Assembly (NCBI GenBank): GCA_018175075.1
Contig: GCA_018175075.1_4100.1
Length of the DNA: 64,000 nt
Reading direction: 5' to 3' (one strand)
From: a phage
Below the pieces are notes generated by a model that saw only the letters and a program-made list of their open reading frames with translations, had not been told where the DNA came from and did no database searches. A program made the position numbers and the translations under genes. Shown here piece after piece: positions 38,766-51,139 of this stretch (positions within the stretch are counted from its first letter, which is position 1; each line of letters starts with the position of its first letter).

Positions 38766-39403
38766 TTAAACACATAGAGACAGGGGAAGCTCCTAGTGAA
38801 CAACCTTTATGTACAGGCGAATTGTTAAAATTCAGCCTGGACAAATGCGATCACTAGGATTCTCCCCAGGCTAAACCCCGTAATCATAGGTAGTCATAAG
38901 TAATCATATATAAACATTTATATGAGCACCGTAGAATCACAGAATGATTATATATGATTCAGTACTGATTAGTATAGACAAGATTGCTCAAGAATGCACG
39001 GAAATGTGTGTGAATGATTCAGTACTGATATCCCACTAAGTAGGCAGAGGAAGTCTGCCGTACTTTGTAGTTTCCAAGCTCCTTTTCCATTTTGCAAATT
39101 ACATCAAATGTAATCAAAAGTAATCACACAATGATTAGTACTGAATTATTACTTTCACCTTAATTACAATTACCCTTTTACCCTTCGGGGTAAAATTCCA
39201 TTACCCCTTGAGGCTCCAGCAAAAAGTTGGTTAGTACTCCATCCTAAATCTCGATCCTAAAAATTTTGGAGTACCTATGAAATAAAAGTTGGATCTTCGA
39301 AAGTTGAAATTTACGTTGGGACGTTTATGATTTGTGGGATATAATGATGTTTGTAGTCGGGTAGTTCTCAAGAATATCAGTACTGAATGATGAAAGAAAG
39401 CTA

Positions 39404-39431
39404 TTGACTTTATGATTCAGTACTGTATAAT
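39404..39431 (+). promoter_or_regulatory. sigma70-like promoter with no ORF downstream (possible ncRNA promoter)
   Basis: TTGACT, 16 nt, TATAAT then GTTTTACAT; followed by about 110 nt non-coding and a T-tract. Confidence 0.4.
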
Positions 39432-39756
39432 GTTTTACATAGAGAGATGAGTTGCCGCAAACAATTCATTCACTCTACTTCCTGTCGTGAGACAGTACAG
39501 AAAGATAGTTCCTCCTATGGGTGGTACATCTTTTAGAACCTCTTTTTTCGTAATATGAACAGTACTGATATTAACAGAATGGTGTCAGTACTGATTTTAA
39601 TTTAATGCATTATGCCACCAGCACAAGCTGGTGGATTCCCTCTAACAGTATTCAGTACTACATGATGGTCTTCATCCTCCTAGGGTAACATAGTGAGGGC
39701 TATGATGGCAGTACTGAATACTCCCTTTCAAAAGATAGATCTATGGTATAGTACTG

Positions 39757-39950
39757 ACGGATTTTGGGCGTAGTTACCCTGGATGGATTTTGGGCGTAGA
39801 TATGTCTAGCCCTCCAGAAGTCTGGAAGTAAAGATGGCTATCCATCTAGACGGCTAAACGGCTAGATTTCTGGATGGCTGGATGGCTAGACGTTTGGACG
39901 GCTAAACGGCTAGATGGTTACACGTCTGGAAGTATAGACGGCTAAATCAA
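39757..39950. repeat. iteron-like short repeat cluster
   Basis: GGATTTTGGGCGTAG twice; at least 7 copies of (A/G)ACGGCTA/GATGGCTA within about 110 bp; TCTGGAAG three times. Confidence 0.55.
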
Positions 39951-40127
39951 AATTTTATTTTGTTTTTTCCAATAGTTCCCCTACCGCGTGGGGATAGTTT
40001 CCCCGCAGTATCTGGTGTTAGATTTTTCTGAATCTGGAATCATTATCTTATAAACTGGGGGCAATGTCAACGGCCTGGACGGATATTTTTAAAAATTTTT
40101 TCAGTACTGAATTTTGGGCGTAACTAT

Positions 40128-40141
40128 GCACCCGGTGGGCT
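40128..40141 (-). repeat. AGCCCACCGGGTGC element, inverted copy
   Basis: GCACCCGGTGGGCT is the reverse complement of the intergenic element found in forward orientation at 49540, 53530, 59062. Confidence 0.45.
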
Positions 40142-40561
40142 GGAGTCTTTCTCGACTTGATGGAACTATTATACAGTACTGGAAAAATAAAGCAATACCC
40201 TGGATGAAAAAAGTTTTAATTAATTTGCTTGCCATCCTGGGCCGGACTATGGTACTATAATTCAGTACTGAGAAAGTGCGTTAACCTGCTAGGGTGCGGG
40301 AGTGTATCCTTTTTTTATATCTTGAATTTTGGGCGTAATTCCGCACCCTCTGGGGTTTCCGCTTTCTCGCGTCTATGTAGTAATTATACGCTTTTTCAGG
40401 ATCAAGTCAATACCTAAAAACAAATAATTGAAAATAATTTAACGCGTTTAAACGGCCCGTAACGCCCTGGAATGATTAGAATGGTGCAAATGTATAGCTT
40501 AGGTGTATTAATGCGTTAGAATGCGTCTGAGGCCGTTTTATGGGGTGTAGTAGTGATTTGG

Positions 40562-40653
40562 TTGATTCAGTACTGAATAATAGTACTCCTATATAGAAAG
40601 ATAGTTCCCCTGGATTGATTCAGTACTGAATAATAGTACTCCTATATAGAAAG
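40562..40653. repeat. 37 bp direct repeat, two copies
   Basis: GATTCAGTACTGAATAATAGTACTCCTATATAGAAAG at 40564-40600 and 40617-40653. Confidence 0.6.
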
Positions 40654-40685
40654 AAAACTATTTTAAAAGTACATGTAGAAAGTAC

Positions 40686-40745
40686 TTGCACCGTACTGAT
40701 AAAAGCGTATAATGTTTTACATCGAGAGCGGGAACACTTCCCGCT
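40686..40745 (+). promoter_or_regulatory. class-I early promoter plus leader hairpin
   Basis: TTGCAC, 16 nt, TATAAT, GTTTTACATC, then AGCGGGAA-CAC-TTCCCGCT. Confidence 0.6.
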
Positions 40746-40768
40746 ACACTTTAAAAGAGATGAAAACG

Positions 40769-41131
40769 ATGGCGACTCAAATCAATAAAATCATGCTTAA
40801 CCTGGTAAACTTCCGCGATGAGATGAAAGGTCTTCCGGCTGAAACTGTAAAAATTCACATTGCAGCTTATCGGGAACTTATTGCAATGTTGCCGCTTAAG
40901 CGTGAACAATACGCCGCTACTTTGATGCTGGATTCAATGATCCATGTAATGATCTCAAATGATTTAACGATGGTTTATCAGTACATGGGAGAAAATTTCG
41001 CGGTGTGTAGTAAGCCAGTACCAGGGATGGCAACTACTGAGGAATTGCACGGTTTAAATTTAAAGCAAGATGCATGGGATAATATGCCTCGTTTCCTGGT
41101 ATGGGCTGACAGTGGCAAAATTTACAAATAA
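40769..41131 (+). CDS. hypothetical protein, 120 aa
   Basis: ATG after leader hairpin with AAAGAG RBS; alternative start 40760; track start 40712 lies in the -10 box. Confidence 0.55.
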   Translation: MATQINKIMLNLVNFRDEMKGLPAETVKIHIAAYRELIAMLPLKREQYAATLMLDSMIHVMISNDLTMVYQYMGENFAVCSKPVPGMATTEELHGLNLKQDAWDNMPRFLVWADSGKIYK

Positions 41132-41145
41132 GTTTAATAAAGTAC

Positions 41146-41202
41146 TTGCAAACTATGTTTAATGGCGTATAATGTTTTACATCAGGTGGGGAATAGTTCC
41201 CC
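41146..41202 (+). promoter_or_regulatory. class-I early promoter plus leader hairpin
   Basis: TTGCAA, 16 nt, TATAAT, then GGGGAA-TAG-TTCCCC. Confidence 0.6.
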
Positions 41203-41224
41203 ACTATATAAGAGGATTAAAAAA

Positions 41225-41464
41225 ATGGCTAAATCAAAAATGTTCTTAGGTCACAAAAACAAAACTCATTGGAATGTAAGCCTGTGGATTAATAACGATG
41301 AGGGATTGTATCGGTTGGCCCTGGATTTTATTAACGACAACACTAATCGCAATGATGCGGCCCGTCATATGATGTTATTTTTAGAACAGACTGGACAAGA
41401 TAAAACACCGGACGGATTCAAATATAGCACTACTGCGATCCGTGCGGCGATGGTTGGAATGTAA
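41225..41464 (+). CDS. hypothetical protein, 79 aa (paralog of 43265 gene)
   Basis: AAGAGGA RBS; shares GHKNKTHWNVSLWINN...PDGFKYSTTAIRAAMVGM. Confidence 0.65.
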   Translation: MAKSKMFLGHKNKTHWNVSLWINNDEGLYRLALDFINDNTNRNDAARHMMLFLEQTGQDKTPDGFKYSTTAIRAAMVGM

Positions 41465-41511
41465 TAGAATAGAATTTATTTAAAGTACTATCGCAAAAAA
41501 TGATAGTACTT

Positions 41512-41517
41512 TATAAT
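41512..41517 (+). promoter_or_regulatory. possible -10 element (weak -35)
   Basis: TATAAT 37 nt upstream of ATG 41555. Confidence 0.3.
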
Positions 41518-41554
41518 AGTGTTTTATTCATACACCAACGATAAGGGCAACAGC

Positions 41555-41818
41555 ATGAATATTAAGTATTTTGCGACGCGTGAACAAGCTCGGATCGCTG
41601 CACGCCAGGACGGGGCAACGTTTAAAGATATGGGCGTACAATCGGAACGTGGTAAACGTTGGGCCATTGTAAAGCGTAGTACCGCCAGATCATTACAGTA
41701 CTGGTTAGCGGCCTTAAAAAGTCCCGATAGTGTATCGCGTCGAGTGGTAGAAATAAAGCTCGACCGAAAGGGCAACCGCGTGACCGTGTACCGTACTAAA
41801 AAGATTGCAGTACTATAA
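41555..41818 (+). CDS. hypothetical protein, 87 aa (paralog of 54831 gene)
   Basis: AAGGG RBS; shares FATREQARIAARQDGA and DRKGNRVTVY. Confidence 0.6.
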   Translation: MNIKYFATREQARIAARQDGATFKDMGVQSERGKRWAIVKRSTARSLQYWLAALKSPDSVSRRVVEIKLDRKGNRVTVYRTKKIAVL

Positions 41819-41826
41819 AAAAGTAC

Positions 41827-41886
41827 TTGCAAACTCTGTTTAATGGCGTATAATGTTTTACATCGAGAGCGGGAACACTTCCCGCC
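41827..41886 (+). promoter_or_regulatory. class-I early promoter plus leader hairpin
   Basis: TTGCAA, 16 nt, TATAAT, then AGCGGGAACACTTCCCGC. Confidence 0.6.
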
Positions 41887-41906
41887 TATAACCTGGAGTA
41901 ATAAAA

Positions 41907-42137
41907 ATGACTAATATGTATATGACTGAAGTTAAAACCGTAAAAGATACTACCACAAATAAAGTTACTTACTTACAGCGGATCTGTGGTGTATGGCAAC
42001 GTATCAGCAAATCAAAGTACTATAAATTAACATCATATGCAAACCGTTCTGATTCATTCAGTACTGAAATAAAAGGTAATAAAGTACACCAATACGGCAC
42101 TTATTATTATTACAGCCTGGACGCGATTGCAGTATAA
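41907..42137 (+). CDS. hypothetical protein, 76 aa
   Basis: ATG with GGAG RBS. Confidence 0.55.
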   Translation: MTNMYMTEVKTVKDTTTNKVTYLQRICGVWQRISKSKYYKLTSYANRSDSFSTEIKGNKVHQYGTYYYYSLDAIAV

Positions 42138-42167
42138 GCAGTTTACAAATCTTTACAATTGCCGGTA

Positions 42168-42196
42168 TTGACTTATTTTGTCAGTACTGGCATAAT
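42168..42196 (+). promoter_or_regulatory. sigma70-like promoter with no ORF downstream
   Basis: TTGACT, 17 nt, CATAAT; downstream is repeat element, not coding. Confidence 0.4.
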
Positions 42197-42219
42197 GTAT
42201 TCATTGGCAGATAAGCCGT

Positions 42220-42247
42220 AGCCCATAGGGTGCGGGAGTGTATCTAT
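42220..42247 (+). repeat. AGCCCA(N)AGGGTGC element, forward copy
   Basis: AGCCCATAGGGTGCGGGAGTGTATCTAT; inverted partner GCACCCGGTGGG at 42279-42290. Confidence 0.45.
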
Positions 42248-42384
42248 AGAAAAATTAGTTTAGTATAGTTACAATTGTGCACCCGGTGGGTTAGCTGTTG
42301 TCATGGGGTATATTATGCCAGTACTGGATAGTGCTGTCAATACTTTTTTAATATTCAGTACTGAAAACTATTTTTAAAAAGTAC

Positions 42385-42412
42385 TTGCAAACTATGTTTA
42401 AAGGCGTATAAT
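42385..42412 (+). promoter_or_regulatory. class-I early promoter driving candidate ncRNA
   Basis: TTGCAA, 16 nt, TATAAT, GTTTTACATC. Confidence 0.55.
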
Positions 42413-42418
42413 GTTTTA

Positions 42419-42502
42419 CATCAGGACGGGGAACGAAATAAGTAACTTCCCGTTAAGTAGCCCAGGAGTAAGGCACACGAAAAACTCCCCTGATAAAATA
42501 GT
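42419..42502 (+). ncRNA. candidate structured RNA, copy 1
   Basis: about 80 nt without ATG; internal hairpin CGGGGAA...TTCCCG and terminal ATCAGG...CCTGAT pairing; near-identical copy at 53635. Confidence 0.4.
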
Positions 42503-42530
42503 TTGACAATTGTTTTTAAAAGCGTATAAT
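42503..42530 (+). promoter_or_regulatory. sigma70-like promoter
   Basis: TTGACA, 16 nt, TATAAT. Confidence 0.55.
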
Positions 42531-42562
42531 ACTTACATCAACTACTGAATGAGGGTTACAAA

Positions 42563-43174
42563 ATGAAAACTATCACTACTACTACTTTCGTTATGGATTT
42601 TTCTGAATTGAACGCAGAACAAAAAACGTCAGCTATCGAACTGGTTCGGGAACGTGAAAAAAACTCAAACGACAATTATTTTTCTGAAAGTGAAATTGAA
42701 TACTATAAAGAAACAGTACTACCGGAATATGGCATTAATGACGCTGAAATACAATTCAGTGGCTTTTGGTCCCAGGGTGACGGTGCATCAATCAGTACTG
42801 ACCACGTTGACGCAGTGAAGTTTTTACGCAAGGTAAGAGCATTAACTAAGTATCGCTCAATCCGTCACCTGCTGAATGAAGATGATTTGGCGATGAGTGT
42901 AAAGCGTTCGCACTCCCACTACTCGCATGAGAATACTGTAAGCGGGTACATTGAATCGGCTTACACTGATTTAACCGCAAAACAAGAAACGTTAGTTAAT
43001 GAGCTTGAGGAACTACTCACTGAAACTATTCGTGAATTGTCCCGCAAGTTGTACCGTGATTTAGAGAATGCATATGAGGATCAATTCACCACTGAAAACA
43101 TTACGGCACTGATTGAGGGTAACGAATATCAATTCAATGTTATTGATGGCGTAGTAGAATCAATCGAATATTAA
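42563..43174 (+). CDS. hypothetical acidic protein, 203 aa
   Basis: GAGGG RBS; acidic; WSQGDGASI and HSHYSHEN motifs. Confidence 0.55.
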   Translation: MKTITTTTFVMDFSELNAEQKTSAIELVREREKNSNDNYFSESEIEYYKETVLPEYGINDAEIQFSGFWSQGDGASISTDHVDAVKFLRKVRALTKYRSIRHLLNEDDLAMSVKRSHSHYSHENTVSGYIESAYTDLTAKQETLVNELEELLTETIRELSRKLYRDLENAYEDQFTTENITALIEGNEYQFNVIDGVVESIEY

Positions 43175-43186
43175 TTTAAAAAGTAC

Positions 43187-43246
43187 TTGCAAACTAAGTT
43201 TAAAAGCGTATAATACTTTATATCGAGGCGGGGAATGGTTCCCCGC
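43187..43246 (+). promoter_or_regulatory. class-I early promoter plus leader hairpin
   Basis: TTGCAA, 16 nt, TATAAT, then GCGGGGAATGGTTCCCCGC. Confidence 0.6.
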
Positions 43247-43264
43247 TCAAACGAGGATTTAAAA

Positions 43265-43504
43265 ATGGCTAGTACTAAAACTTACAACGGTCACAAAAAC
43301 AAAACTCATTGGAATGTAAGCCTTTGGATTAATAACGGTGAGTCATTGTATCGGCTTGCTCAAAGTTGCATCGCACAAAGTAGAACTAAAGATATTGCTG
43401 CGGAATGTATGTACCGCAGATTAAAAGCCAACGGTACTACTACAACGCCGGACGGCTTTAAGTATAGCACTACTGCGATCCGTGCTGCAATGGTTGGAAT
43501 GTAA
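43265..43504 (+). CDS. hypothetical protein, 79 aa (paralog of 41225 gene)
   Basis: GAGGA RBS; conserved C-terminus. Confidence 0.65.
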   Translation: MASTKTYNGHKNKTHWNVSLWINNGESLYRLAQSCIAQSRTKDIAAECMYRRLKANGTTTTPDGFKYSTTAIRAAMVGM

Positions 43505-43517
43505 TATTCAGTACTGA

Positions 43518-43546
43518 GATAATGGCGGGGAATGGTTCCCGCCTTT
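43518..43546 (+). promoter_or_regulatory. degenerate promoter/leader hairpin, may act as terminator
   Basis: GATAAT then GGCGGGGAATGGTTCCCGCC hairpin and TTT. Confidence 0.4.
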
Positions 43547-43561
43547 ACTGAGGGTTATCTA

Positions 43562-43849
43562 ATGAGTAAAGTAATAAAGTACAATGTGTTAAGTAAATCA
43601 TTGTCTATCAGTGAATGCACCGATGGTTTTTGGATGTACGATGAAACGCGTGGCATGAATTTAGCTATGCGTGCAAAAACTGCTGAGGCGGCGTATATTC
43701 AAGCACTGGAATACTACCAGGAACGTTTAAAGGAAGTAGAAGAAGATTATAAAAGCCTCAAAGCGAAAGTAGATCATTTCGTCGGTCAATTCGTGGAAGA
43801 CAACGACGAGGACGGGCACTACTGCGACCGTTGCGGATCTTACAGTTAA
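43562..43849 (+). CDS. hypothetical protein, 95 aa
   Basis: ATG with GAGGG RBS; C-terminal CDRCG. Confidence 0.5.
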   Translation: MSKVIKYNVLSKSLSISECTDGFWMYDETRGMNLAMRAKTAEAAYIQALEYYQERLKEVEEDYKSLKAKVDHFVGQFVEDNDEDGHYCDRCGSYS

Positions 43850-43866
43850 GTACTAAGGATTATATA

Positions 43867-44079
43867 ATGAGTGATTTAATTGAACGTATCAAAGAGCTTG
43901 AAGAAAAAGAATTGCAGTTGATCGGGTTACGGAATAAAGTATTCCATGATTTAGGTGGCTTTATTAATGCCTGGGATAGTGGCGATCCTGATGCGTTACC
44001 TGCTAACCGCCAGGCGATGATCAATGATGTGCGTGGTGTCTTTGAGTATGTTTTAAAAGTACTAGACACTAAGCAATAA
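43867..44079 (+). CDS. hypothetical protein, 70 aa
   Basis: ATG with AAGGA RBS. Confidence 0.5.
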   Translation: MSDLIERIKELEEKELQLIGLRNKVFHDLGGFINAWDSGDPDALPANRQAMINDVRGVFEYVLKVLDTKQ

Positions 44080-44090
44080 AGGCGTATAAT
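44063..44090 (+). promoter_or_regulatory. possible promoter
   Basis: TAGACA, 16 nt, TATAAT overlapping 3' end of upstream gene. Confidence 0.3.
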
Positions 44091-44140
44091 ACTTTATATT
44101 GGTACTGACAAACATTATAAGCGATTCAGGAGCTTTAATC

Positions 44141-44326
44141 ATGACAACATTATCTGAGGTTATCCGCGTTCAAGCTGCAAAGGCTGGAATGACTGTTATC
44201 AATGTAGGGATCAAGATTGAGATCTCCCCTAACGAGTTGCAAGGGATTCCCGATCCTACTAGCTGGGATCGTGCTGGGCGAATGATGCGTAATGCTTCAT
44301 TACTGGACGGTACAAAATTTAATTAA
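44141..44326 (+). CDS. hypothetical protein, 61 aa
   Basis: ATG with AGGAG RBS. Confidence 0.5.
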   Translation: MTTLSEVIRVQAAKAGMTVINVGIKIEISPNELQGIPDPTSWDRAGRMMRNASLLDGTKFN

Positions 44327-44333
44327 AAAGTAC

Positions 44334-44392
44334 TTGCAATTAGTTTTTAGTACTGTATAATGGTTTACATCAAAGGGAGAAATGGTTCTCCC
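44334..44392 (+). promoter_or_regulatory. class-I early promoter plus leader hairpin
   Basis: TTGCAA, 16 nt, TATAAT, then GGGAGAAATGGTTCTCCC. Confidence 0.6.
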
Positions 44393-44411
44393 TGGTAATG
44401 AGGAAAATAAA

Positions 44412-44633
44412 ATGGCTAATATCACTACTCTTTCCCAACTGGAAGCACTGGTTAAATCTATGCGGGAACATGCCGACAAAATCGGCGTACAAGATCCAGC
44501 CGTTTGCTTCTGCGACGAAATGAATGATGATACACTGGTAATAGCAGAAGTCCAGGACGTTTCTAACTATTCCTCGCGTTACACTGGCGGCGTAGCAAAT
44601 AAAGGTGACTTCTGTTTATACCTTACAAAATAA
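44412..44633 (+). CDS. hypothetical protein, 73 aa
   Basis: ATG with GAGGAAA RBS. Confidence 0.55.
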   Translation: MANITTLSQLEALVKSMREHADKIGVQDPAVCFCDEMNDDTLVIAEVQDVSNYSSRYTGGVANKGDFCLYLTK

Positions 44634-44637
44634 CAAC

Positions 44638-44668
44638 GCGGGGAGATAATAACTCCCCGTTACTTTTT
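44638..44668 (+). terminator. rho-independent terminator
   Basis: CGCGGGGAG...CTCCCCG hairpin then TTTTT. Confidence 0.6.
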
Positions 44669-44699
44669 CAGTACTGAATCATTTAATAGACGGATCTCG

Positions 44700-44711
44700 G
44701 CACCCGGTGGG
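44700..44711 (-). repeat. AGCCCACCGGGTGC element, inverted copy
   Basis: GCACCCGGTGGG. Confidence 0.4.
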
Positions 44712-44801
44712 TTAGTGACTGTTTCGTCTTGATGTAGTAATTATGCCAGTACTGGATGCACTTGTCAACAACTATTTTTCAAATACTTTTTATTAAAATA
44801 C

Positions 44802-44856
44802 TTGCAATTAGTTTTTAAACGCGTATAATGTTTTGCATAGGGGGAGCGGTTCCCCT
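44802..44856 (+). promoter_or_regulatory. class-I early promoter plus leader hairpin
   Basis: TTGCAA, 16 nt, TATAAT, then GGGGAGCGGTTCCCC. Confidence 0.6.
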
Positions 44857-44876
44857 GGTAACTAAGGAATAATAAA

Positions 44877-45113
44877 ATGCTTGAACAAATCAAATCAACG
44901 TCTGCGAATGTAACGGGAACGGTAGCACACTTTACTAGTGATGAATCGCGGGGCGTTCCCTATTGTGCTGTACATGTAAACACTGAGGGTAACTACTGGT
45001 TTACGGTTTACGGATCATATTCATTTGGACGGCCTGGACATCAAAAAATTCTGGATAAAGTACAGCCAACGGGTAAAAATATCACTGCTGAAATGTTTTA
45101 TAAAAAATCATAA
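44877..45113 (+). CDS. hypothetical protein, 78 aa
   Basis: ATG with AAGGAA RBS. Confidence 0.55.
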   Translation: MLEQIKSTSANVTGTVAHFTSDESRGVPYCAVHVNTEGNYWFTVYGSYSFGRPGHQKILDKVQPTGKNITAEMFYKKS

Positions 45114-45118
45114 AGTAC

Positions 45119-45178
45119 TTGATAATAGTTTTTAGTACTGTATAATATTTTACATCGCAAGGGGGGAGCGGTTCCCCC
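45119..45178 (+). promoter_or_regulatory. class-I early promoter plus leader hairpin
   Basis: TTGATA, 16 nt, TATAAT, then GGGGGAGCGGTTCCCCC. Confidence 0.55.
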
Positions 45179-45198
45179 TGGTAACTAAGGATAATCAA

Positions 45199-45498
45199 AT
45201 GAAAATTGCAATCATCGCCCTGGCTTTATCTGTTTCCTCTTTCGCTGTTAATGCGTCGTTAGATGTAAGTAGTGAAAAATTCATTCAGTGCACTGTAGCG
45301 ATGACCAATGAAAGTACTGGCGAGATTGTTTTAAAGGATTTAGAGATCCAGCCAGAAGCATTTAAAAACGGGCCGTTCCATGAAGAAGACGAAAAAGGTA
45401 GCACGACAATTTATTACGATGCAAGTACTAAACGCGGTTCGGTCACTGTTATGGATACTGAGAAAGTAACGCATTCCGGCGTTATTAATTGCCGTTGA
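45199..45498 (+). CDS. secreted protein (signal peptide), 99 aa
   Basis: AAGGA RBS; signal peptide ending VNA/S. Confidence 0.55.
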   Translation: MKIAIIALALSVSSFAVNASLDVSSEKFIQCTVAMTNESTGEIVLKDLEIQPEAFKNGPFHEEDEKGSTTIYYDASTKRGSVTVMDTEKVTHSGVINCR

Positions 45499-45519
45499 TA
45501 GATACTACGGGGTAACATC

Positions 45520-45750
45520 ATGACTAAGCGAATTGTTTTACTTAACGAAAGCAGTACTACACAACTACTTAACGCCGTGCATTATGATATTGAAACGAGC
45601 GTTAATCTTATCAGTACTGTAGTACTGTTGGACACTGGAAAGGTCGCCAATGATAAAGCGATTGCAGGTATATTAACGGATCTTGAGCCTGGTAGCAGTG
45701 CACCAATAACGTTAAATGGTAAAGTGTTTAATATTTTACTCACTGATTAA
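45520..45750 (+). CDS. hypothetical protein, 76 aa
   Basis: ATG with GGGG RBS. Confidence 0.45.
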   Translation: MTKRIVLLNESSTTQLLNAVHYDIETSVNLISTVVLLDTGKVANDKAIAGILTDLEPGSSAPITLNGKVFNILLTD

Positions 45751-45756
45751 GTACAT

Positions 45757-45778
45757 AGCCCACCTGGTGGGCTTTTTT
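45757..45778 (+). terminator. rho-independent terminator
   Basis: AGCCCACC-TGGTGGGCT hairpin then TTTTTT. Confidence 0.65.
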
Positions 45779-45832
45779 GTTTTTGTAGTATCGTAGTACT
45801 GAGATACTTTGAAAATAGTTTTAAAAAAATAG

Positions 45833-45860
45833 TTGACATTACCGCAAAAAGGCGTAGAAT
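45833..45860 (+). promoter_or_regulatory. sigma70-like promoter
   Basis: TTGACA, 16 nt, TAGAAT. Confidence 0.5.
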
Positions 45861-45866
45861 ATATTA

Positions 45867-45945
45867 CATCAAGACGGGGAGCACTAAGTAGACCGCCAGT
45901 AAGTCGAACGAAAAACTGGACACGTCGAGAAAACTTTGATACACT
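45867..45945 (+). ncRNA. candidate structured RNA, divergent copy 3 (or long 5' leader of 45984 gene)
   Basis: shares CATCARGACGGGGA, AGTAAG and ACGAAAAACT blocks with copies at 42419 and 53635; no ORF. Confidence 0.3.
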
Positions 45946-45983
45946 AATAAACGTAAACTAAACTTTAATTGAGGATTTATAAA

Positions 45984-46466
45984 ATGGCTAATGTAAAATC
46001 ATTCATCAAAGCACTGGTAGCAAATGAAACTAACGTCGCGGCTGAGATCCTGGCTGAACTGGATAACGATACCATGAAAGCGGTACGCAATAATTTTAAC
46101 ATCGCTTACAGTACTGCGAAAGAACTACAAGCAAATAAAGCGGCAGAAATTGAAGCGGCAAAGGCGGCCCGTGAAGCAGAACTACAAGCAACAATTGAAA
46201 GTATTCAGGCGGCAGTAGTTGGATTGGATCTGGAAGTAGTTACAGAGATGGCACAAAAAGCCCTGGCGAAAAAGTACGGTGAAGATAAGCCAGAAGTAAA
46301 AGCTAAAAAATGGATTCAAGAACGTGTAGCGGTAGTACTTGATAACGGGGAAGAATATCTGATTCCGGTGCGTGGTAACTGCATTGCGGTAGTACTGGAT
46401 GCGATTAACTCCAGTGGTATGACTCGCGAGGAATGGATCGAAGCTCATCGCAAAGTTGAAGCATAA
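45984..46466 (+). CDS. hypothetical protein, 160 aa (Ala/Glu-rich)
   Basis: ATG with GAGGA RBS. Confidence 0.55.
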   Translation: MANVKSFIKALVANETNVAAEILAELDNDTMKAVRNNFNIAYSTAKELQANKAAEIEAAKAAREAELQATIESIQAAVVGLDLEVVTEMAQKALAKKYGEDKPEVKAKKWIQERVAVVLDNGEEYLIPVRGNCIAVVLDAINSSGMTREEWIEAHRKVEA

Positions 46467-46487
46467 CAATTAAAGTACTGAATCATT

Positions 46488-46513
46488 AGCCCACTTATAC
46501 AGTGGGCTTTTTT
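46488..46513 (+). terminator. rho-independent terminator
   Basis: AGCCCACT-TATAC-AGTGGGCT hairpin then TTTTTT. Confidence 0.7.
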
Positions 46514-46667
46514 GTGTTTATCGTTTACCAGGCCACCAGCACCGCCTAGAAACGATTCTAACGTATTAAACTGTTTATCTGATGCATTGCCCTAGCTGGT
46601 GGCGTTAAAGTCGTTAGAATGCGATTGAGTGCGTTTAAAGTATTTTGCAAAAAGTAATAAAAAGTAC

Positions 46668-46725
46668 TTGCACGATTAAGAGATTAGCGTATAATGTTTT
46701 ACATCGAGAGGGGGAAACGGTTCTC
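46668..46725 (+). promoter_or_regulatory. class-I early promoter plus leader hairpin
   Basis: TTGCAC, 16 nt, TATAAT, then GGGGGAAACGGTTCTCC. Confidence 0.55.
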
Positions 46726-46750
46726 CTTCCAAATCAAAGGAATCAAAACA

Positions 46751-46978
46751 ATGGCTATTATCATTACTCGCGTATCTGGTACTACTGGCAACGAACAAGT
46801 AGTTGCAGTCATTACCAACAAGGAAGGTGCGGAATTGCAAAATGCAATGAATACCTGGGCCGTTAATGAGTTCGGTCAGTGGGCAAGTGTAGCATACATT
46901 GAAACCTATCAAGTGCCGTCGATTAGTTTAACTGATTTGGGCGTTGAGCGTATCCTTTGCCTTGATGAATTAAATTAA
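46751..46978 (+). CDS. hypothetical protein, 75 aa
   Basis: ATG with AAAGGA RBS; track start 46694 lies in the -10 box. Confidence 0.55.
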   Translation: MAIIITRVSGTTGNEQVVAVITNKEGAELQNAMNTWAVNEFGQWASVAYIETYQVPSISLTDLGVERILCLDELN

Positions 46979-46986
46979 AAAAGTAC

Positions 46987-47047
46987 TTGCAAAGTAAATC
47001 GAATAAAGTATAATACATTACATCAAGGGGAGAAAATGGTTCTCCCC
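46987..47047 (+). promoter_or_regulatory. class-I early promoter plus leader hairpin
   Basis: TTGCAA, 16 nt, TATAAT, then GGGGAGAAAATGGTTCTCCCC. Confidence 0.6.
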
Positions 47048-47064
47048 ACTACAAGGAAACTAAA

Positions 47065-47208
47065 ATGAAAACTTGTCAATGTGGTCAGAAATCTATTACT
47101 GGTTTAAAGCGGGGCGTTGCTCTTTGCCAGTACCATTATAATTTACAAGTATGGGGTAAAGAATGGGCCGACCAGGTGGAAGCAGCAAAGAAAGCAAAAA
47201 GTAAGTAA
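47065..47208 (+). CDS. small Cys-containing protein, 47 aa
   Basis: ATG with AAGGAAA RBS after leader hairpin; CQCG...CQYH; below track size cutoff. Confidence 0.45.
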   Translation: MKTCQCGQKSITGLKRGVALCQYHYNLQVWGKEWADQVEAAKKAKSK

Positions 47209-47227
47209 AAATATTATCACAGTACTA

Positions 47228-47256
47228 TTGACATAGTTTGATAGTACTGGCATAAT
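47228..47256 (+). promoter_or_regulatory. class-II promoter
   Basis: TTGACA, 17 nt, CATAAT within repeated AGTACTATTGACATAGTTTGATAGTACTGGCATAAT module. Confidence 0.55.
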
Positions 47257-47287
47257 AGATTTTATCAAAACAACTGAGGAAAATAAA

Positions 47288-47500
47288 ATGGCTATCATCA
47301 CTAAAATCAAAGTTAACAAGACTATCGTTAAACTGGCAGAAGTGAAAGAAGGTTATAAAGTATCTTGGTGCGGTATGTATCGGACGTTCGCAGATATAGA
47401 TGATGCAATCAATTACTACACTGACACGGTTAAAAACTTTGTTCGTGCTGATGTGGTTATGGCAGTGGCAACATATAAAGCAGCGAAAGAAAGTAAGTAA
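47288..47500 (+). CDS. hypothetical protein, 70 aa (paralog of 50419 gene)
   Basis: GAGGAAA RBS; MAII..K N-terminus. Confidence 0.55.
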   Translation: MAIITKIKVNKTIVKLAEVKEGYKVSWCGMYRTFADIDDAINYYTDTVKNFVRADVVMAVATYKAAKESK

Positions 47501-47519
47501 AAATATTATCACAGTACTA

Positions 47520-47548
47520 TTGACATAGTTTGATAGTACTGGCATAAT
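47520..47548 (+). promoter_or_regulatory. class-II promoter (duplicate module)
   Basis: TTGACA, 17 nt, CATAAT. Confidence 0.55.
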
Positions 47549-47589
47549 AGATTTTATCAAGACAACATATTAATTTAAGGAATACAAAA

Positions 47590-47913
47590 ATGGCTAAAAC
47601 TATCATTAACACCGTTTCCCTGGCTGCAATCCGTGCAATCAATGTTGACGGTAAACGTTGGACTGATTCATATGGCAATACTTATCATTCTTGTCATGTA
47701 AGCGTTGAACTGGATAACGGTTTGAATGATCTGGCGGTTGAATCATTTACTTATGGCTATGAAGATGCATATCAACAAACGGCGTTATCTCTCTTAAAGG
47801 AATCAGTAGACGGGCTTAATACTGATGAAACCTCCCTTACTCGTTTGTGTAATGATTTGTCTATCCCGTTGCATTGTACTGTACAGAATGTTAAACGCAA
47901 AAAAGATCTTTAA
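47590..47913 (+). CDS. hypothetical protein, 107 aa (paralog of 54412 gene)
   Basis: AAGGAA RBS; shares RWTDSYGNTYHSC...FTYGY...NDVKRKKD. Confidence 0.6.
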   Translation: MAKTIINTVSLAAIRAINVDGKRWTDSYGNTYHSCHVSVELDNGLNDLAVESFTYGYEDAYQQTALSLLKESVDGLNTDETSLTRLCNDLSIPLHCTVQNVKRKKDL

Positions 47914-47993
47914 TTAGCTTTACTTTATGCAGATACTTTGATATAGTGTCTGCATAGGGGAAAGAAATTAAATTAACTTAAGAGGATCGTATA

Positions 47994-48263
47994 ATGAAAA
48001 ATATCAGTACTTTAATCGACGCAGGTACACATGTTCGGCGGTCTATGGTTGCAACCAGTACTACAAAACAAGTAGCGAGCGGTTATCTTGTATTTGTGCA
48101 CGATGGTAAACTCCTGGAACGTTCAATCAATTTTGATGTTAAAAACAATTGCCGTTTTATTATCTTTAAGCGTGAACAATATAAAATCGATTTGCCAGCA
48201 AAGCCCATTAGCGGGGCGTACAACGTGCAATCATTGTTTGAGCGTCAACCTTACACCTATTAA
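47994..48263 (+). CDS. hypothetical protein, 89 aa
   Basis: ATG with AAGAGGA RBS. Confidence 0.5.
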   Translation: MKNISTLIDAGTHVRRSMVATSTTKQVASGYLVFVHDGKLLERSINFDVKNNCRFIIFKREQYKIDLPAKPISGAYNVQSLFERQPYTY

Positions 48264-48314
48264 TCAAAACATCGTTAGCGGTCGTTTTAGGCCGCTTATA
48301 TTGGGGATTATACC

Positions 48315-48587
48315 ATGAACGTTAATCAAGTACTGAATGAGATCGAAAGCATCATTAAACCGATGAAGCGTACTGATGCTATGTTAACACCGGAAGAATG
48401 CCGCCTTTATGAGCGTTACAGCGTCGAACAAGTCCAGGCAATGGCTATGGCTACCCCAGCCGTTAAACCGCCTGAGAATGCGTTACAGGACGTTACAGGG
48501 GATTATATCATCAATCCAGTACTAGGGAAGATGGCTGCAATCACCGAAGATCAACAAGACTACTTAAGCCAGTACTTAAAAGGTTAA
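48315..48587 (+). CDS. hypothetical protein, 90 aa
   Basis: ATG with GGGGA RBS. Confidence 0.5.
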   Translation: MNVNQVLNEIESIIKPMKRTDAMLTPEECRLYERYSVEQVQAMAMATPAVKPPENALQDVTGDYIINPVLGKMAAITEDQQDYLSQYLKG

Positions 48588-48592
48588 TTAAT

Positions 48593-48802
48593 ATGCTTAC
48601 TGTACAGGATAAGATCGACATCTTAAAGGTTAATATGTATGTGATTGATGCAGTACCTGGTAAAGTATTTGCATACGATGACACCACTGTAAGCGATTTC
48701 TACTATAGCCAGGCCGTGGGGGATCTTTCTGTACAGTCGGTTATTGAAAACGTAGTTAATGCAGCGTATGAGCATTTACTTTCAAATAGTACTTGCAATT
48801 AG
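48593..48802 (+). CDS. hypothetical protein, 69 aa
   Basis: ATG with AAAGG RBS. Confidence 0.5.
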   Translation: MLTVQDKIDILKVNMYVIDAVPGKVFAYDDTTVSDFYYSQAVGDLSVQSVIENVVNAAYEHLLSNSTCN

Positions 48803-48852
48803 TTTTTAAACGCGTATAATGTTTTACATGAAGGGGAGAAATGATTCTCCCC
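48793..48852 (+). promoter_or_regulatory. class-I early promoter plus leader hairpin
   Basis: TTGCAA, 16 nt, TATAAT, then GGGGAGAAATGATTCTCCCC. Confidence 0.6.
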
Positions 48853-48871
48853 ACTAATTAAGGAATATGAA

Positions 48872-49018
48872 ATGAAAGCATCAAAAAAGAGTACTAACAA
48901 GAAAGCACGTTCAACCTTAGATGGGGTATTCCCTTTACGTTTCGTTGATGAAGTGGTTTCCTACCCGCCTGGCCTTACTCCTGAGATGGTAGAAAGTTTG
49001 CGTAAATCTAAAAAATAG
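48872..49018 (+). CDS. small basic protein, 48 aa
   Basis: ATG with AAGGAA RBS after leader hairpin; below track size cutoff. Confidence 0.45.
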   Translation: MKASKKSTNKKARSTLDGVFPLRFVDEVVSYPPGLTPEMVESLRKSKK

Positions 49019-49021
49019 TAC

Positions 49022-49081
49022 TTGCAATTAGTTTTTAGTACTGTATAATGTTTTACATGAAGGGGAGAAATGATTCTCCCC
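49022..49081 (+). promoter_or_regulatory. class-I early promoter plus leader hairpin
   Basis: TTGCAA, 16 nt, TATAAT, then GGGGAGAAATGATTCTCCCC. Confidence 0.6.
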
Positions 49082-49099
49082 AATAACAGGAGAAACAAA

Positions 49100-49252
49100 A
49101 TGAAACAATACAACGCTCGGTTTGATGTTACTATCGGTAACGGCAAAGGTCAATTCTCTTTCAGTACTCGCCGCAGTTATACAGAAAACTTCCTGCGTAA
49201 TTGTGCACTGACCGCCGCACAAATTAAACATTACTTTCAGGCTAAAAAATGA
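49100..49252 (+). CDS. hypothetical small protein, 50 aa
   Basis: ATG with AGGAGAAA RBS; track ORF 49070 starts inside hairpin loop. Confidence 0.5.
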   Translation: MKQYNARFDVTIGNGKGQFSFSTRRSYTENFLRNCALTAAQIKHYFQAKK

Positions 49253-49338
49253 AATCATTAGCTTATTACAGTTCGGCCCTGGTCGGTGCATTGATCGCGG
49301 CATTGTTAGTAACCTATCTATTCTTTATGGTGATTTAA
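49249..49338 (+). CDS. small membrane peptide, 29 aa
   Basis: ATGA overlap with upstream stop; hydrophobic. Confidence 0.3.
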   Translation: MKSLAYYSSALVGALIAALLVTYLFFMVI

Positions 49339-49473
49339 ATGAATCCTAACGGTATAATTTACAGTACTCCTAAAACGAAAGCAGACAAGGTAAACGCTAA
49401 AAAAGCGAAAGTAAAGGAGTACATCAAGCAAGGCATGACGCGAAAGGCCGCAGTACTTAAAGCTAAAAAATAA
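49339..49473 (+). CDS. small basic protein, 44 aa
   Basis: TAAATG coupling; Lys-rich. Confidence 0.35.
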   Translation: MNPNGIIYSTPKTKADKVNAKKAKVKEYIKQGMTRKAAVLKAKK

Positions 49474-49484
49474 ATGAAAAAAGT

Positions 49485-49507
49485 GGTTGACTTCGGTCAG
49501 CCATTTT
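49485..49507 (+). terminator. rho-independent terminator
   Basis: GGTTGAC-TTCG-GTCAGCC hairpin then ATTTTG. Confidence 0.65.
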
Positions 49508-49539
49508 GCTATTATATATTCATTGAGAGATAGCTCACT

Positions 49540-49567
49540 AGCCCACAGGGTGCGGAAGTGTATCTAT
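49540..49567 (+). repeat. AGCCCACAGGGTGC element, forward copy
   Basis: AGCCCACAGGGTGCGGAAGTGTATCTAT between terminator and promoter. Confidence 0.45.
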
Positions 49568-49608
49568 TATATAAGTATTGAGTACTGAAAACTATTTTTA
49601 AAAAGTAC

Positions 49609-49668
49609 TTGCAAACTATCTCAATAGGCGTATAATGTTTTACATCGAAAGGGGAAACGGTTTCCCCT
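49609..49668 (+). promoter_or_regulatory. class-I early promoter plus leader hairpin
   Basis: TTGCAA, 16 nt, TATAAT, then GGGGAAACGGTTTCCCC. Confidence 0.6.
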
Positions 49669-49687
49669 GGTAATAAGGAAACAAATC

Positions 49688-50029
49688 ATGACTATTGCAA
49701 TTGCTCAATCTAACTTTGAAAATGAAATCATCGCTCAGACACTGCGTTTAAGTGATGGTCGGGCCGAAATTAATTACGGTTTCAATTCAGGCGGTTGTGA
49801 AAAATATCAGTACTTTGTAACGGCTGATGGCGGTGTCCTGGGTATCAATACAGTTATTGTAAACATACAGAAAATTAATTTCAATGATCCAGACGATAGC
49901 CAGTTTTACATCACAGGCGTAGACGTGAACTATGAGGATGACTCACTAACTGATGATCACACTGGCGAGCGGTTAGAAAGTGCATACGGTGAAGATGATT
50001 ATCAGTCCGGTCCAGAAGATTTCGAATAA
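49688..50029 (+). CDS. hypothetical acidic protein, 113 aa
   Basis: ATG with AAGGAAA RBS. Confidence 0.55.
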   Translation: MTIAIAQSNFENEIIAQTLRLSDGRAEINYGFNSGGCEKYQYFVTADGGVLGINTVIVNIQKINFNDPDDSQFYITGVDVNYEDDSLTDDHTGERLESAYGEDDYQSGPEDFE

Positions 50030-50042
50030 TATAAAAAATAGT

Positions 50043-50102
50043 TTGACAATAGATTATAGTACTGTATAATAGTTTACATCAAGGGGAGAAATGATTCTCC
50101 CC
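50043..50102 (+). promoter_or_regulatory. early promoter plus leader hairpin
   Basis: TTGACA, 16 nt, TATAAT, then GGGGAGAAATGATTCTCCCC. Confidence 0.6.
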
Positions 50103-50122
50103 ACTAACAGAGAGAAAACAAA

Positions 50123-50335
50123 ATGGCTAATATCTGCACTGTACTGAAAAATGCAAAACAAGTTTTATTTTCTGATCACGATCATTTAAACAAGGATATT
50201 ACTGGCGTTCGGAATATCAAAGATGTAAAAAGTGTTATGGGTATCTATTGCAATATGAAACGTGTTGGAACGTTCGGCGACAAAGTACTATACCAGGCAG
50301 GGGATTACAATTTTACACTGACTATCATTAACTAA
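50123..50335 (+). CDS. hypothetical protein, 70 aa
   Basis: ATG with AGAGAG RBS. Confidence 0.55.
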   Translation: MANICTVLKNAKQVLFSDHDHLNKDITGVRNIKDVKSVMGIYCNMKRVGTFGDKVLYQAGDYNFTLTIIN

Positions 50336-50354
50336 AAATATTATCACAGTACTA

Positions 50355-50383
50355 TTGACATAGTTTGATAGTACTGACATAAT
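50355..50383 (+). promoter_or_regulatory. class-II promoter (third copy of module)
   Basis: TTGACA, 17 nt, CATAAT. Confidence 0.5.
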
Positions 50384-50418
50384 AACTTTTATCAACTACA
50401 CTACTAAGGAATTAAAAA

Positions 50419-50598
50419 ATGGCTATCATCGCAAAAACTGAAATCGTTGGTCTGGATTCTATCATCATGACGTTTGAAGATCAAAAAGGTATGTATGTAG
50501 TTTCATATGGTGATTATGTTCGGGAGTATGAAACGGTAGACGAAGCCTTTGAAAGTTATATTCGCCAGGTGAATAAAGCATACGACGACTACCGCTAA
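50419..50598 (+). CDS. hypothetical protein, 59 aa (paralog of 47288 gene)
   Basis: AAGGAA RBS; MAIIAK N-terminus; below track size cutoff. Confidence 0.5.
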   Translation: MAIIAKTEIVGLDSIIMTFEDQKGMYVVSYGDYVREYETVDEAFESYIRQVNKAYDDYR

Positions 50599-50616
50599 AA
50601 TATATTACCAGTACTA

Positions 50617-50644
50617 TTGACAACGTTTGATAGTACTGTATAAT
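50617..50644 (+). promoter_or_regulatory. class-II promoter variant
   Basis: TTGACA, 16 nt, TATAAT. Confidence 0.5.
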
Positions 50645-50688
50645 AAGTTTTATAAACAGTAGTTAACTTAACCTAAGAGAGAAATAAA

Positions 50689-50832
50689 ATGATCGCACTG
50701 GATTCATTCATCGACGCAGTACTGGCAAAAACTGGCGAGGATCTGACCGCAGAACAATACGCAATGATCGAGCAATGCCAGCAAGACGGTAAATCGGTGA
50801 AAGATACTGTTAAGATTATCCGCAAGATGTAA
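50689..50832 (+). CDS. hypothetical small protein, 47 aa
   Basis: ATG with AAGAGAG RBS; followed by terminator. Confidence 0.45.
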   Translation: MIALDSFIDAVLAKTGEDLTAEQYAMIEQCQQDGKSVKDTVKIIRKM

Positions 50833-50838
50833 TATTAT

Positions 50839-50866
50839 AGCCCACTGGTTAACGCTGGTGGGCTTT
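50839..50866 (+). terminator. terminator-like hairpin
   Basis: AGCCCAC...GTGGGCT hairpin then TTTAATT. Confidence 0.5.
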
Positions 50867-50937
50867 AATTCATTACCCTATACAATGCCAGTACTAAACC
50901 GTTTATCTCGTTAGAATGCATTACAGGACGTTTGACA

Positions 50938-51135: not shown

Positions 51136-51139
51136 TCTA

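Follow-up and report, generated by a model that had tools for sequence, protein, structure and literature searches.

The gene-free region of an Asteriusvirus-type jumbo coliphage as the probable left boundary of its ~21 kb direct terminal repeat

What is the role of a repeat-rich region without genes situated between two gene blocks of a jumbo phage? We address this question for positions 38,766 to 40,685 of a 64,000-nucleotide stretch of DNA (the window) from the phage assembly GCA_018175075.1, contig GCA_018175075.1_4100.1, where a first-pass annotation made from the sequence alone had proposed a replication origin, a packaging site or a small-RNA locus. The window is Asteriusvirus sequence (PBECO4/121Q/G17-like jumbo coliphages), and our data suggest that the region is, quite probably, where the ~21 kb direct terminal repeat (DTR) of Asteriusvirus has its left boundary, and that it combines a concatemer-junction and packaging region with a leader for early transcription that carries Chi sites. 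The DTR and its coordinates are already public for sister phages; new are the anatomy of the leader, a cut pentamer shared by both boundaries, an element conserved across genera, the Chi arrangement and a candidate RNA. The papers on fEgEco12, Sharanji, Kae01 and CBB do not describe the leader, nor do they mention the sequence at the cut site, the arrays, the conserved element or the AGTACT palindrome (Chi was not looked for in them).

The 1.9 kb region matches 42 phage records with 88-98% identity; in 34 of these the match covers at least 80% of the region. The full-length matches are all jumbo phages of the Asteriusvirus type (310-386 kb) with E. coli or Salmonella as hosts, among them PBECO4, 121Q, G17, phAPEC6 and fEgEco12. 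Conservation, integrity of open reading frames (ORFs), promoters and covariation were scored in eight relatives, retention of the Chi hairpin in nine, and genome-wide counts were made in OR845138.1 (350 of 352 kb read), hereafter the reference relative. The other lineages compared were Muenster (Klebsiella, Alcyoneusvirus), RaK2, fENko-Kae01, Hallingskeid, Xanthomonas phage XbC2 (Mimasvirus) and the Kae01-like contig L081. A 15-mer scan of viral contigs gave mostly chance matches, the informative ones being jumbo-size contigs only.

The reading is carried by the chromosome ends of near-identical phages. Five GenBank records of such phages begin or end exactly at window position 39039 (CCCACTA^AGTAGG, the caret marking the end), and judged from these ends the packaged genome begins at 39039 with AGTAGGCAG. 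The G17 record is linear and its first 20,668 bp recur at the other end with 100% identity, corresponding to the window from 60492 back to 39039; its authors reported doubled coverage (PMC6563267). For fEgEco12 the ends come from PhageTerm and were borne out by digests with ten restriction enzymes (PMC13070987); its first bases, AGTAGGCAGAGGAAGTCTGCC, coincide with window position 39039. The same holds for the first nucleotide of vB_Ec-M-J (annotated 'Direct Terminal Repeats' 1..21525), BAU.Micro_ELP-22 and E9.1, while for Sharanji PhageTerm gave a repeat of 20,668 bp (PMC11895373). Two-fold depth or read-start signals over the repeat have been reported for G17, CBB, fEgEco12 and Sharanji. Hence, the relatives have the same sequence at both ends and fixed, non-permuted end nucleotides, and the coincidence of independently determined ends with 39039 strongly supports the packaging-site option among the three proposed.

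Since the ends of the relatives lie at 39039, the region is split by the chromosome end into 273 bp of junction DNA and a non-coding leader of 1.65 kb (39039-40711). The 'plus-strand early block' of the first-pass annotation, in which neither a chromosome end nor a DTR was recognised, is the terminal repeat itself, and the right end of the repeat at 60492 falls within a 220-nt intergenic gap. The same layout is present elsewhere: the PhageTerm repeat of Muenster (1..20030) has a 1.3 kb gene-free leader and the genome of XbC2 opens with 1.7 kb of gene-free DNA.

Among the eight relatives, positions 38825-38924 are conserved to 93-100% and positions 38925-39024 are variable (0.5-0.7); conservation then jumps to 0.92-1.0 approximately 15 nt before the cut and is held for ~1.5 kb through the leader. 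These data bear on the possibility that the region is decayed early-gene DNA, a spacer without function beyond holding the cut site. It does contain pieces that resemble early genes (TATAATGTTTTACAT at 39425, GAAAGATAGTTCC repeats and leader-like GGGGATAGTTTCCCC hairpins), and a 53-bp duplication and the length of an 8-bp array vary between strains. However, 39025-40550 is conserved at 0.9-1.0 where the adjoining junction DNA falls to 0.5, little or no variation is seen in promoter hexamers and most motif copies, and the order of conserved element, promoter and 8-bp array with T-rich flank is retained in a different genus. We regard decay as very unlikely.

Is the region truly non-coding? The last small ORF upstream ends at 38765 and the first early ORF spans 40712-41131, giving an ORF-free gap of 38766-40711, slightly longer than first given; the earlier claim that it holds no plausible ORF agrees with our data. 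Thirteen ORFs of at least 25 amino acids are present in the gap, none of which is intact in all eight relatives and most of which are broken in at least half, and their variable sites show neither codon-position bias nor third-position excess. Thus, ORF integrity and codon positions in the eight relatives revealed no conserved coding potential. ARAGORN predicted no tRNA or tmRNA in the region, and Rfam gave no match at gathering score on the whole window and none at E<=1 on the region, such that the recommended scans for tRNA and non-coding RNA (ncRNA) found no tRNA and no Rfam family there.

The public annotations differ at this point. The curated records of 121Q, A4, G17, vB_Ec-M-J and PBECO4 have no annotated coding sequence and leave a gene-free gap of ~2 kb, and several automatically annotated records place five to eight 'hypothetical proteins' in the region. 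The fEgEco12 record annotates the ORF g614 in the right DTR copy, and it is absent from the annotation of the identical left copy. Many deposited relatives were moreover opened at an arbitrary point or lack the second repeat copy. The automatic calls and the single fEgEco12 ORF are what could be cited for small proteins that gene callers overlook or call inconsistently. Against such proteins stand the lack of any ORF of at least 25 amino acids intact in 8/8 relatives, the missing codon-position bias and the empty gap in the curated records, and we find this explanation barely credible.

If the region is the DTR boundary, which signals mark the cut? Reading the junctions 5' to 3' into the packaged DNA, the left end of the window is CCCACTA^AGTAGG and its right end, on the bottom strand, GTCGCTA^AGGTTA. 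Corresponding junctions are AGTGCTA^AGCCTA (Muenster, right), TGCCACTA^AGTCCG (RaK2, left, with CTA before the cut; Muenster's own start is ^AGTCCG), GTGGCTA^AGGCAT (fENko-Kae01, right) and TCCGCTA^TATCTT (fENko-Kae01, left). CTA therefore precedes the cut at all six boundaries for which the outside sequence was read, covering three genera, and AG follows it at five of the six and also at the left end of Muenster, for which the outside sequence was taken from RaK2. Apart from the pentamer the left and right junctions are unrelated in sequence. The 19 nt preceding the left cut are near-identical in this phage (CAGTACTGATATCCCACTA) and RaK2 (AAGTACTGATATGCCACTA), with differing flanks. The Kae01 form recurs in Hallingskeid and an IMG/VR contig, where AGTACT is followed by a C-rich stretch, CTA^TATCTTCT and a hairpin. 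The two repeat boundaries thus carry equivalent cut signals on opposite strands, as would be predicted by T7-type staggered cuts and copying of the repeat, a step that we infer from the sequence arrangement.

Several further elements lie close to the cut (Table 1). Phased 10-bp repeats just outside the left cut are also present in RaK2 and the Kae01-like contig, with different sequences. An AGTACT palindrome is found at a similar distance from the left cut in RaK2, Kae01 and Hallingskeid and from the right cut in Muenster, and Kae01 and Hallingskeid have an unrelated hairpin at the position of the terminal hairpin. A single-copy element of ~65 nt is located 170-237 nt inside the end; we refer to it as the terminal conserved element (TCE). 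When the 600 nt closest to the terminus were used as blastn query, only the TCE and the promoter at 39404 were detected in other genera. Copies that align with the TCE are located 60-240 nt inside the end in 4-5 genera (Asteriusvirus, the Kae01 group, XbC2 and Hallingskeid, with a partial copy in Muenster), and a single instance of the 15-nt core was counted in the genome of the reference relative and likewise in the window. Both of the element's ATCCTAAA repeats are changed jointly to ATCGTAAA in UE-S1 and A4, as expected if two sites were read by one protein.

Table 1. Features of the repeat boundary, the leader and the right cut site (window coordinates)
Feature	Coordinates	Strand	Remarks
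Pre-terminus junction DNA	38766..39038		Unique 273 bp before the DTR in concatemers, before the right-hand DTR copy in virions
10-bp phased GTAATCA repeats	38880..38908	+	131-159 nt outside cut
CAGTACTG palindrome	39020..39027		Ends 11 nt outside cut
Left cut motif 5'-CTA^AG-3'	39036..39040	+	Top strand
DTR, window copy	39039..60492	+	21,454 bp; small early genes, sigma-70 type promoters, all + strand
Terminal hairpin GGCAGA-GGAAG-TCTGCC	39043..39059		5-21 nt inside end; identical in 7/8 relatives
10-bp phased ATCAAAAGTA/GTAATCA repeats	39103..39126	+	65-88 nt inside end
TCE	39209..39275	+	CTCCAGCAAAAAGTTGG, then inverted repeat GTACTCC/GGAGTAC around two ATCCTAAA and AAAAATTTT
Predicted sigma-70 promoter TTGACT-16-TATAAT	39404..39431	+	CAGTACTG in spacer; 365 nt from end, inward
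Candidate ~200 nt structured ncRNA	39438..39645	+	7 helices; one GNRA-type (GUGA) loop; one helix of two CAGUACUG copies
Back-to-back Chi hairpin CCACCAGC-ACAA-GCTGGTGG	39615..39634		Helix 7 (last) of candidate RNA; Chi on both strands
Four GRATTTTGGGCGTAR repeats	39762, 39788, 40112, 40327 (39762..40337)	+	Each one arm of a small hairpin; leader only
8-bp tandem array, ~16 units RGAYGGCT	39816..39943	+	Followed by T-rich tract and CCCCTACCGCG
Predicted leftward promoter TTGACA-17-GATAAT	40042..40070	-	Hexamers identical in 8/8 relatives
Predicted leftward promoter TTGCTT-N-TATAAT	40168..40197	-	CAGTACTG in spacer; precedes AGCCCACCGGGTGC (40128-40141); hexamers invariant
Long imperfect hairpin GAGAAAGTGCG...AGGGTGCGG / CCGCACCCT...CGCTTTCTC	40270..40368		z -4.1 (+), -3.2 (-)
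Predicted leftward promoter TTGACT-16-TATAAT	40383..40410	-	11/12 match; hexamers identical in 8/8 relatives
53-bp tandem duplication	40562..40654	+	Two perfect 40-nt copies, each with TTCAGTACTGAA
Predicted first early-gene promoter TTGCAC-16-TATAAT with GTTTTACAT	40686..40713	+	End of leader
Right cut motif 5'-CTA^AG-3'	60491..60495	-	Bottom strand (top strand CT^TAG); outside the region, same system

The leader also carries Chi sites, which we scored as putative by the exact GCTGGTGG sequence and its orientation. The window contains 15 Chi octamers where 0.69 are expected. Eleven of these are in the DTR (39615-59129), where ~0.07 per strand are expected: the top strand has nine, in unrelated contexts, and the bottom strand two. 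The G17 repeat has nine on the top and one on the bottom strand. As a separate observation, the reference relative has 17 Chi octamers outside the repeat where ~2 are expected. RecBCD responds to top-strand Chi when it enters from the right (PMC12315714); the nine DTR sites are thus directed at the right chromosome end, with 1.36 kb between this end and the nearest of them. Conversely, RecBCD that enters the left end would meet its first Chi in the correct orientation at 39615 (+577), where the top strand reads CCACCAGC. This copy belongs to a hairpin, missed by the first-pass annotation, in which two Chi sites stand back to back and which is retained in 8/9 relatives. The loop of this hairpin (39623-39626) is ACAA in some strains and the complement TTGT in others with identical stems, that is, the palindrome is flipped as a unit between strains. 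On the basis of sequence and orientation we infer that the first ~580 bp may be an expendable buffer and that Chi may turn RecBCD to recombination between the two repeat copies.

Could the leader be transcribed? Of the promoter-like sites noted previously, both 39404 (11/12 match) and 42168 (10/12), the latter situated outside the region, were recovered. In the 39404 promoter the -10 hexamer is identical in 8/8 relatives and the -35 hexamer is only TTGACT or TTGACA, and a consensus inward promoter is also present in Muenster (+271) and RaK2 (+260). Three leftward promoters had been overlooked; the predicted sigma-70 sites with conserved, near-consensus hexamers are accordingly those at 39404 on the plus strand and 40070, 40197 and 40410 on the minus strand. 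An early-promoter motif, GTATAATGTTTTACAT, is confined to the repeat, with 12/12 window copies and 13/13 copies in the reference relative inside the DTR, the latter on the plus strand. Likewise, all copies of the early promoter class AAAGTACTTGCAA...TATAATGTTTTACAT fall within the terminal repeat (40686-59615), and in the copies examined in 40.7-42.5 kb a short GC-rich 5' leader hairpin (e.g. CGGGAAcacTTCCCG) precedes the ribosome-binding site.

The ~200 nt following the 39404 promoter are predicted to fold with -64.9 kcal/mol (z -5.27). The consensus structure for the eight relatives has 57 pairs with 95.8% of cells paired, and double changes are seen in 11 pairs, whereas shuffles gave 3.5+-1.2 (0 of 500) and slid controls 0-4. 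The conserved G-U pairs, at least six in number, of which several would be mismatched on the other strand, favour an RNA from the plus strand. An intrinsic terminator was not found in the region: its strongest hairpin, at 39615-39634, is followed by ATTCCCTCT with no T run. The G17 record annotates this hairpin as a terminator, and the other hits of a terminator scan in the region are weak or are palindrome pairs. In PA5oct, a more distant relative, RNA-seq identified two abundant ncRNAs inside the DTR (PMC7318152). For the small-RNA option that had been proposed, the conserved promoter, the fold and the excess of compensatory pairs (11 vs 3.5) provide moderate support, and we have the same moderate confidence that a plus-strand structured RNA may be made behind the 39404 promoter.

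The 40197 promoter belongs to one of four paralogous DTR units in which a promoter precedes AACCCACCGGGTGC, the others being at 42340, 44770 and 53480. These three further units (42168-42340, 44650-44770 and 53480-53580) comprise two on the minus and one on the plus strand, and GCACCCGGTGGGTT of the 42168-42340 unit has its pairing partner in an upstream AGCCCATAGGGTGC arm. The units may be small antisense RNA genes between early genes. A fold shared by the four promoter-plus-CCCACCGGGTG units was considered and rejected, the common helix being only 4 bp and the z-scores mixed. Two convergent promoters, the rightward one weak and the leftward one strong, flank the long hairpin at 40270-40368, of which a paralogue is found at 42168-42340.

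Could the leader then be mainly a small-RNA or regulatory locus, with several small-RNA genes and operators for a regulator that binds AGTACT, its position at the end being incidental? Four conserved promoters, a structured plus-strand RNA, the long hairpin between convergent promoters together with its paralogue, the family formed by the four units and the ncRNAs transcribed from the PA5oct DTR (PMC7318152) are all compatible with such a locus. What is conserved across genera, however, is the end-proximal element and the context of the cut and not the RNAs, the four units have no common fold, Rfam gave no match, and non-coding leaders of 1.3-1.7 kb are located at the same place in Muenster and XbC2. 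A mainly small-RNA or regulatory locus in an incidental position appears quite improbable to us.

The repeats of the leader were largely as first described. The region has 12 CAGTACTG palindromes, the window 64 where 0.97 are expected; the four copies of TTTTGGGCGTA(A/G) are all within the region, and in the genome of the reference relative both exact TTTTGGGCGTA copies are in the leader. The short repeats TTAGAATGG at 40476 and TTAGAATGC at 40516 were confirmed. For the inverted GCACCCGGTGGGCT copies the element at 40128 stands, but its partners, an exact inverse at 53530 and 11-nt cores at 42280 and 44701, are outside the region. The direct repeat is present, though as a perfect 40-nt and not a 37-bp repeat, with a 53-bp period (40562-40601 and 40615-40654). 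This duplication varies between strains, one copy being absent in G17, and is probably not essential. The 8-bp tandem array had been overlooked. Its copy number varies by whole units among the relatives, and the XbC2 leader carries the same array and T-rich flank. The array and the TTTTGGGCGTA hairpins may be binding sites for the terminase small subunit or an initiator.

AGTACT and CAGTAC/GTACTG are the most over-represented hexamers in the genome of the reference relative (7.6-8.9 fold; AGTACT 913 vs ~119 expected). The density of this family is 56-69 per 10 kb in the repeat vs 11-38 elsewhere, and within the window 9.2 per kb in non-coding vs 3.3 in coding DNA, where all three reading frames are used. 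The 8-mer palindrome peaks in the leader (6.2 per kb), and in the leaders of four other Rak2-like lineages the AGTACT family is enriched 16-27 fold. The palindromes overlap promoter spacers or -35 hexamers and adjoin cut sites, and their spacing showed no preference and was indistinguishable from local random placement. As judged by these patterns the palindrome is probably a protein-binding site, and the CAGTACTG copies of the leader would be local instances of a site that is over-represented genome-wide and overlaps promoters. Right after the repeat AGTACT, at ~6 per kb up to there, is absent for 3.5 kb (60493-64000), where overlapping paralogous genes of ~70 amino acids follow one another.

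The repeats also raise the question whether the region is, or contains, the primary replication origin, which could coexist with the terminus. The TTTTGGGCGTA units and the 8-bp array would then bind an initiator, and convergent promoters would serve to melt the duplex or to provide an R-loop primer, in the manner of T4 oriF/oriG or the primary origin of T7. Leader-specific repeats found nowhere else in the genome of the reference relative, the conservation of the array in XbC2, the conserved convergent promoters that flank the array (39404 on the plus strand, 40070/40197 on the minus strand) and a global cumulative GC-skew minimum at the terminus would fit with an origin. On the other hand, the 13 DnaA boxes (TTWTNCACA) in the window are as many as expected by chance and none is in the region, and a 100-nt profile revealed no AT-rich unwinding element in the region, which has 39% GC (47-49% in the array) vs 34% for the genome. 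With a period of 8 bp the sites would not all point to the same side of the helix, and the copy number of the array drifts by whole units between strains. The GC-skew analysis that the first-pass annotation had recommended did place the cumulative minimum at the terminus, but this minimum is confounded with gene orientation, which skew tracks genome-wide, and with local composition, the nearby negative skew being that of particular gene families. The origin option thus obtained no independent support, and we consider it unlikely.

Returning to the DTR boundary, the elements above can be combined into a tentative sequence of events. In replicative concatemers the junction would be recognised by terminase or an associated nuclease, candidate recognition elements being, on the outer side of the cut, the AGTACT palindrome with the phased repeats and, on the inner side, the TCE and the hairpin. 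The top strand would be cut at 5'-CTA^AG on the left and the bottom strand at the same pentamer at 60492, and T7-type copying of the repeat would follow. After injection the leader would act as an entry and buffer zone from which the promoter 365 nt from the end, read by host RNA polymerase, would fire inward and make the ~200 nt RNA. The double Chi hairpin would halt RecBCD degradation from the left end, which would be channelled into recombination with the other repeat copy, yielding circles or concatemers.

Some of our data weigh against this reading or parts of it. The terminus was positioned by transfer from relatives whose identity over the first 400 nt is 95.5-98.8%. The left end of the Kae01 type carries ^TA instead of ^AG. 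CTAAG is not avoided in the genome of the reference relative (431 copies vs 418 by a Markov model) and, being neither rare nor avoided, cannot alone determine the cut, the specificity of which must therefore come from other elements. The Chi hairpin is lost in phage A4, and the leaders of Muenster and RaK2 have no Chi. The three conserved leftward promoters have no role in the scheme. With respect to the candidate RNA, the structure was predicted on the same eight close relatives that were used for the covariation count, and equivalent regions gave z-scores of only -0.3 to -1.2 in Muenster, RaK2, Hallingskeid and XbC2, and of -5.8 in L081.

A broader idea, which we put forward tentatively and as rather doubtful, is that Rak2-like jumbo phages share an undescribed cis packaging signal: a 5'-(R)CTA^AG cut on opposite strands 20-21 kb apart, AGTACT and 10-bp phased repeats outside that would position it, and a hairpin and the TCE inside, with an AGTACT-binding phage protein linking early promoters, chromosome organisation and end recognition. 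If such a four-part signal exists, duplication of the repeat would need ~21 kb of strand-displacement synthesis per genome. Packaging signals of Rak2-like phages are undescribed in the papers examined, and the cut pentamer at both boundaries, the TCE and the arrays constitute concrete candidate cis elements that, in phage engineering and therapy, must stay intact. Moreover, the Chi sites of the repeat, oriented toward each end, suggest how a 350 kb linear genome protects and recombines its ends. The chromosome start can now be placed, which corrects orientation and annotation of such genomes with respect to arbitrary opening, collapsed repeats and spurious genes.

Other observations concern the window as a whole. 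GCGC is absent both from the 64 kb window (67 expected) and from 350 kb of OR845138.1 (292 expected), and CAGCTG, ACCGGT, CGATCG and GACGTC are also strongly depleted. The total loss of GCGC suggests lethal selection, for example by a GCGC-cutting host restriction system or by a phage nuclease directed against host DNA. Upstream of the region, 20097-34289 (minus strand) contains approximately 11 tandem paralogous genes of ~400 amino acids, annotated in relatives as 'DNA condensation' or 'regulator of chromosome condensation'-like, and 34500-38765 (plus strand) a tandem array of genes of ~60 amino acids with negative GC skew despite the plus strand.

How does the boundary compare with known systems? 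The closest are the DTRs of Asteriusvirus and Rak2-like phages (G17, fEgEco12, Sharanji, vB_Ec-M-J, CBB, Muenster and fENko-Kae01), which are 20-22 kb long with small early genes and RpoD-type promoters; in G17, fEgEco12 and vB_Ec-M-J the locus is the same and the left end is the exact homologue of 39039, with the papers giving only the length of the repeat. With the T7/T3 concatemer junction and left-end leader, reportedly described by Dunn and Studier in 1983 and by Fujisawa and Morita in 1997, it shares an exact non-permuted repeat, site-specific cuts at the boundaries, duplication of the repeat by DNA synthesis (here predicted), short tandem arrays (7-bp in T7) and strong inward promoters for the host polymerase a few hundred bp from the left end. 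In T7 the repeat measures 160 bp and both the arrays, which adjoin it, and the promoters are outside it, whereas the repeat here is 21 kb; there is no sequence similarity, and the terminase is that of the T4-like jumbo phage lineage.

The long terminal repeats of T5 (10 kb) and the Bacillus phage SPO1 (13 kb) carry pre-early or host-takeover genes, and the likeness extends to a long exact repeat with many small early genes behind strong host promoters and repeat-rich non-coding DNA inside. In T5, however, the repeat-rich non-coding block, known as the injection stop region, is at the inner end of the repeat and the DNA is nicked, while the non-coding block here is at the outer left end; homology was neither looked for nor seen. 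The phi29 pRNA gene encodes a structured RNA of ~170-200 nt behind an early promoter near the left end of a genome with protein-primed ends; its likeness to the candidate RNA is positional only, with no match in sequence or structure (Rfam negative). In P1 and lambdoid LLS, Chi sites are strongly enriched, clustered and orientation-biased near ends or the terminal redundancy and are thought to switch RecBCD to recombination (PMC12315714). P1 is packaged by headful from pac and LLS has cos ends, whereas the ends here are fixed and one Chi pair makes up the hairpin that doubles as the 3' helix of the candidate RNA; unlike LLS, this phage lineage encodes its own recombinase. In its general design the system corresponds to T7, T5 and SPO1, which likewise combine an exact repeat with host promoters ahead of the early genes and short repeat arrays near the ends.

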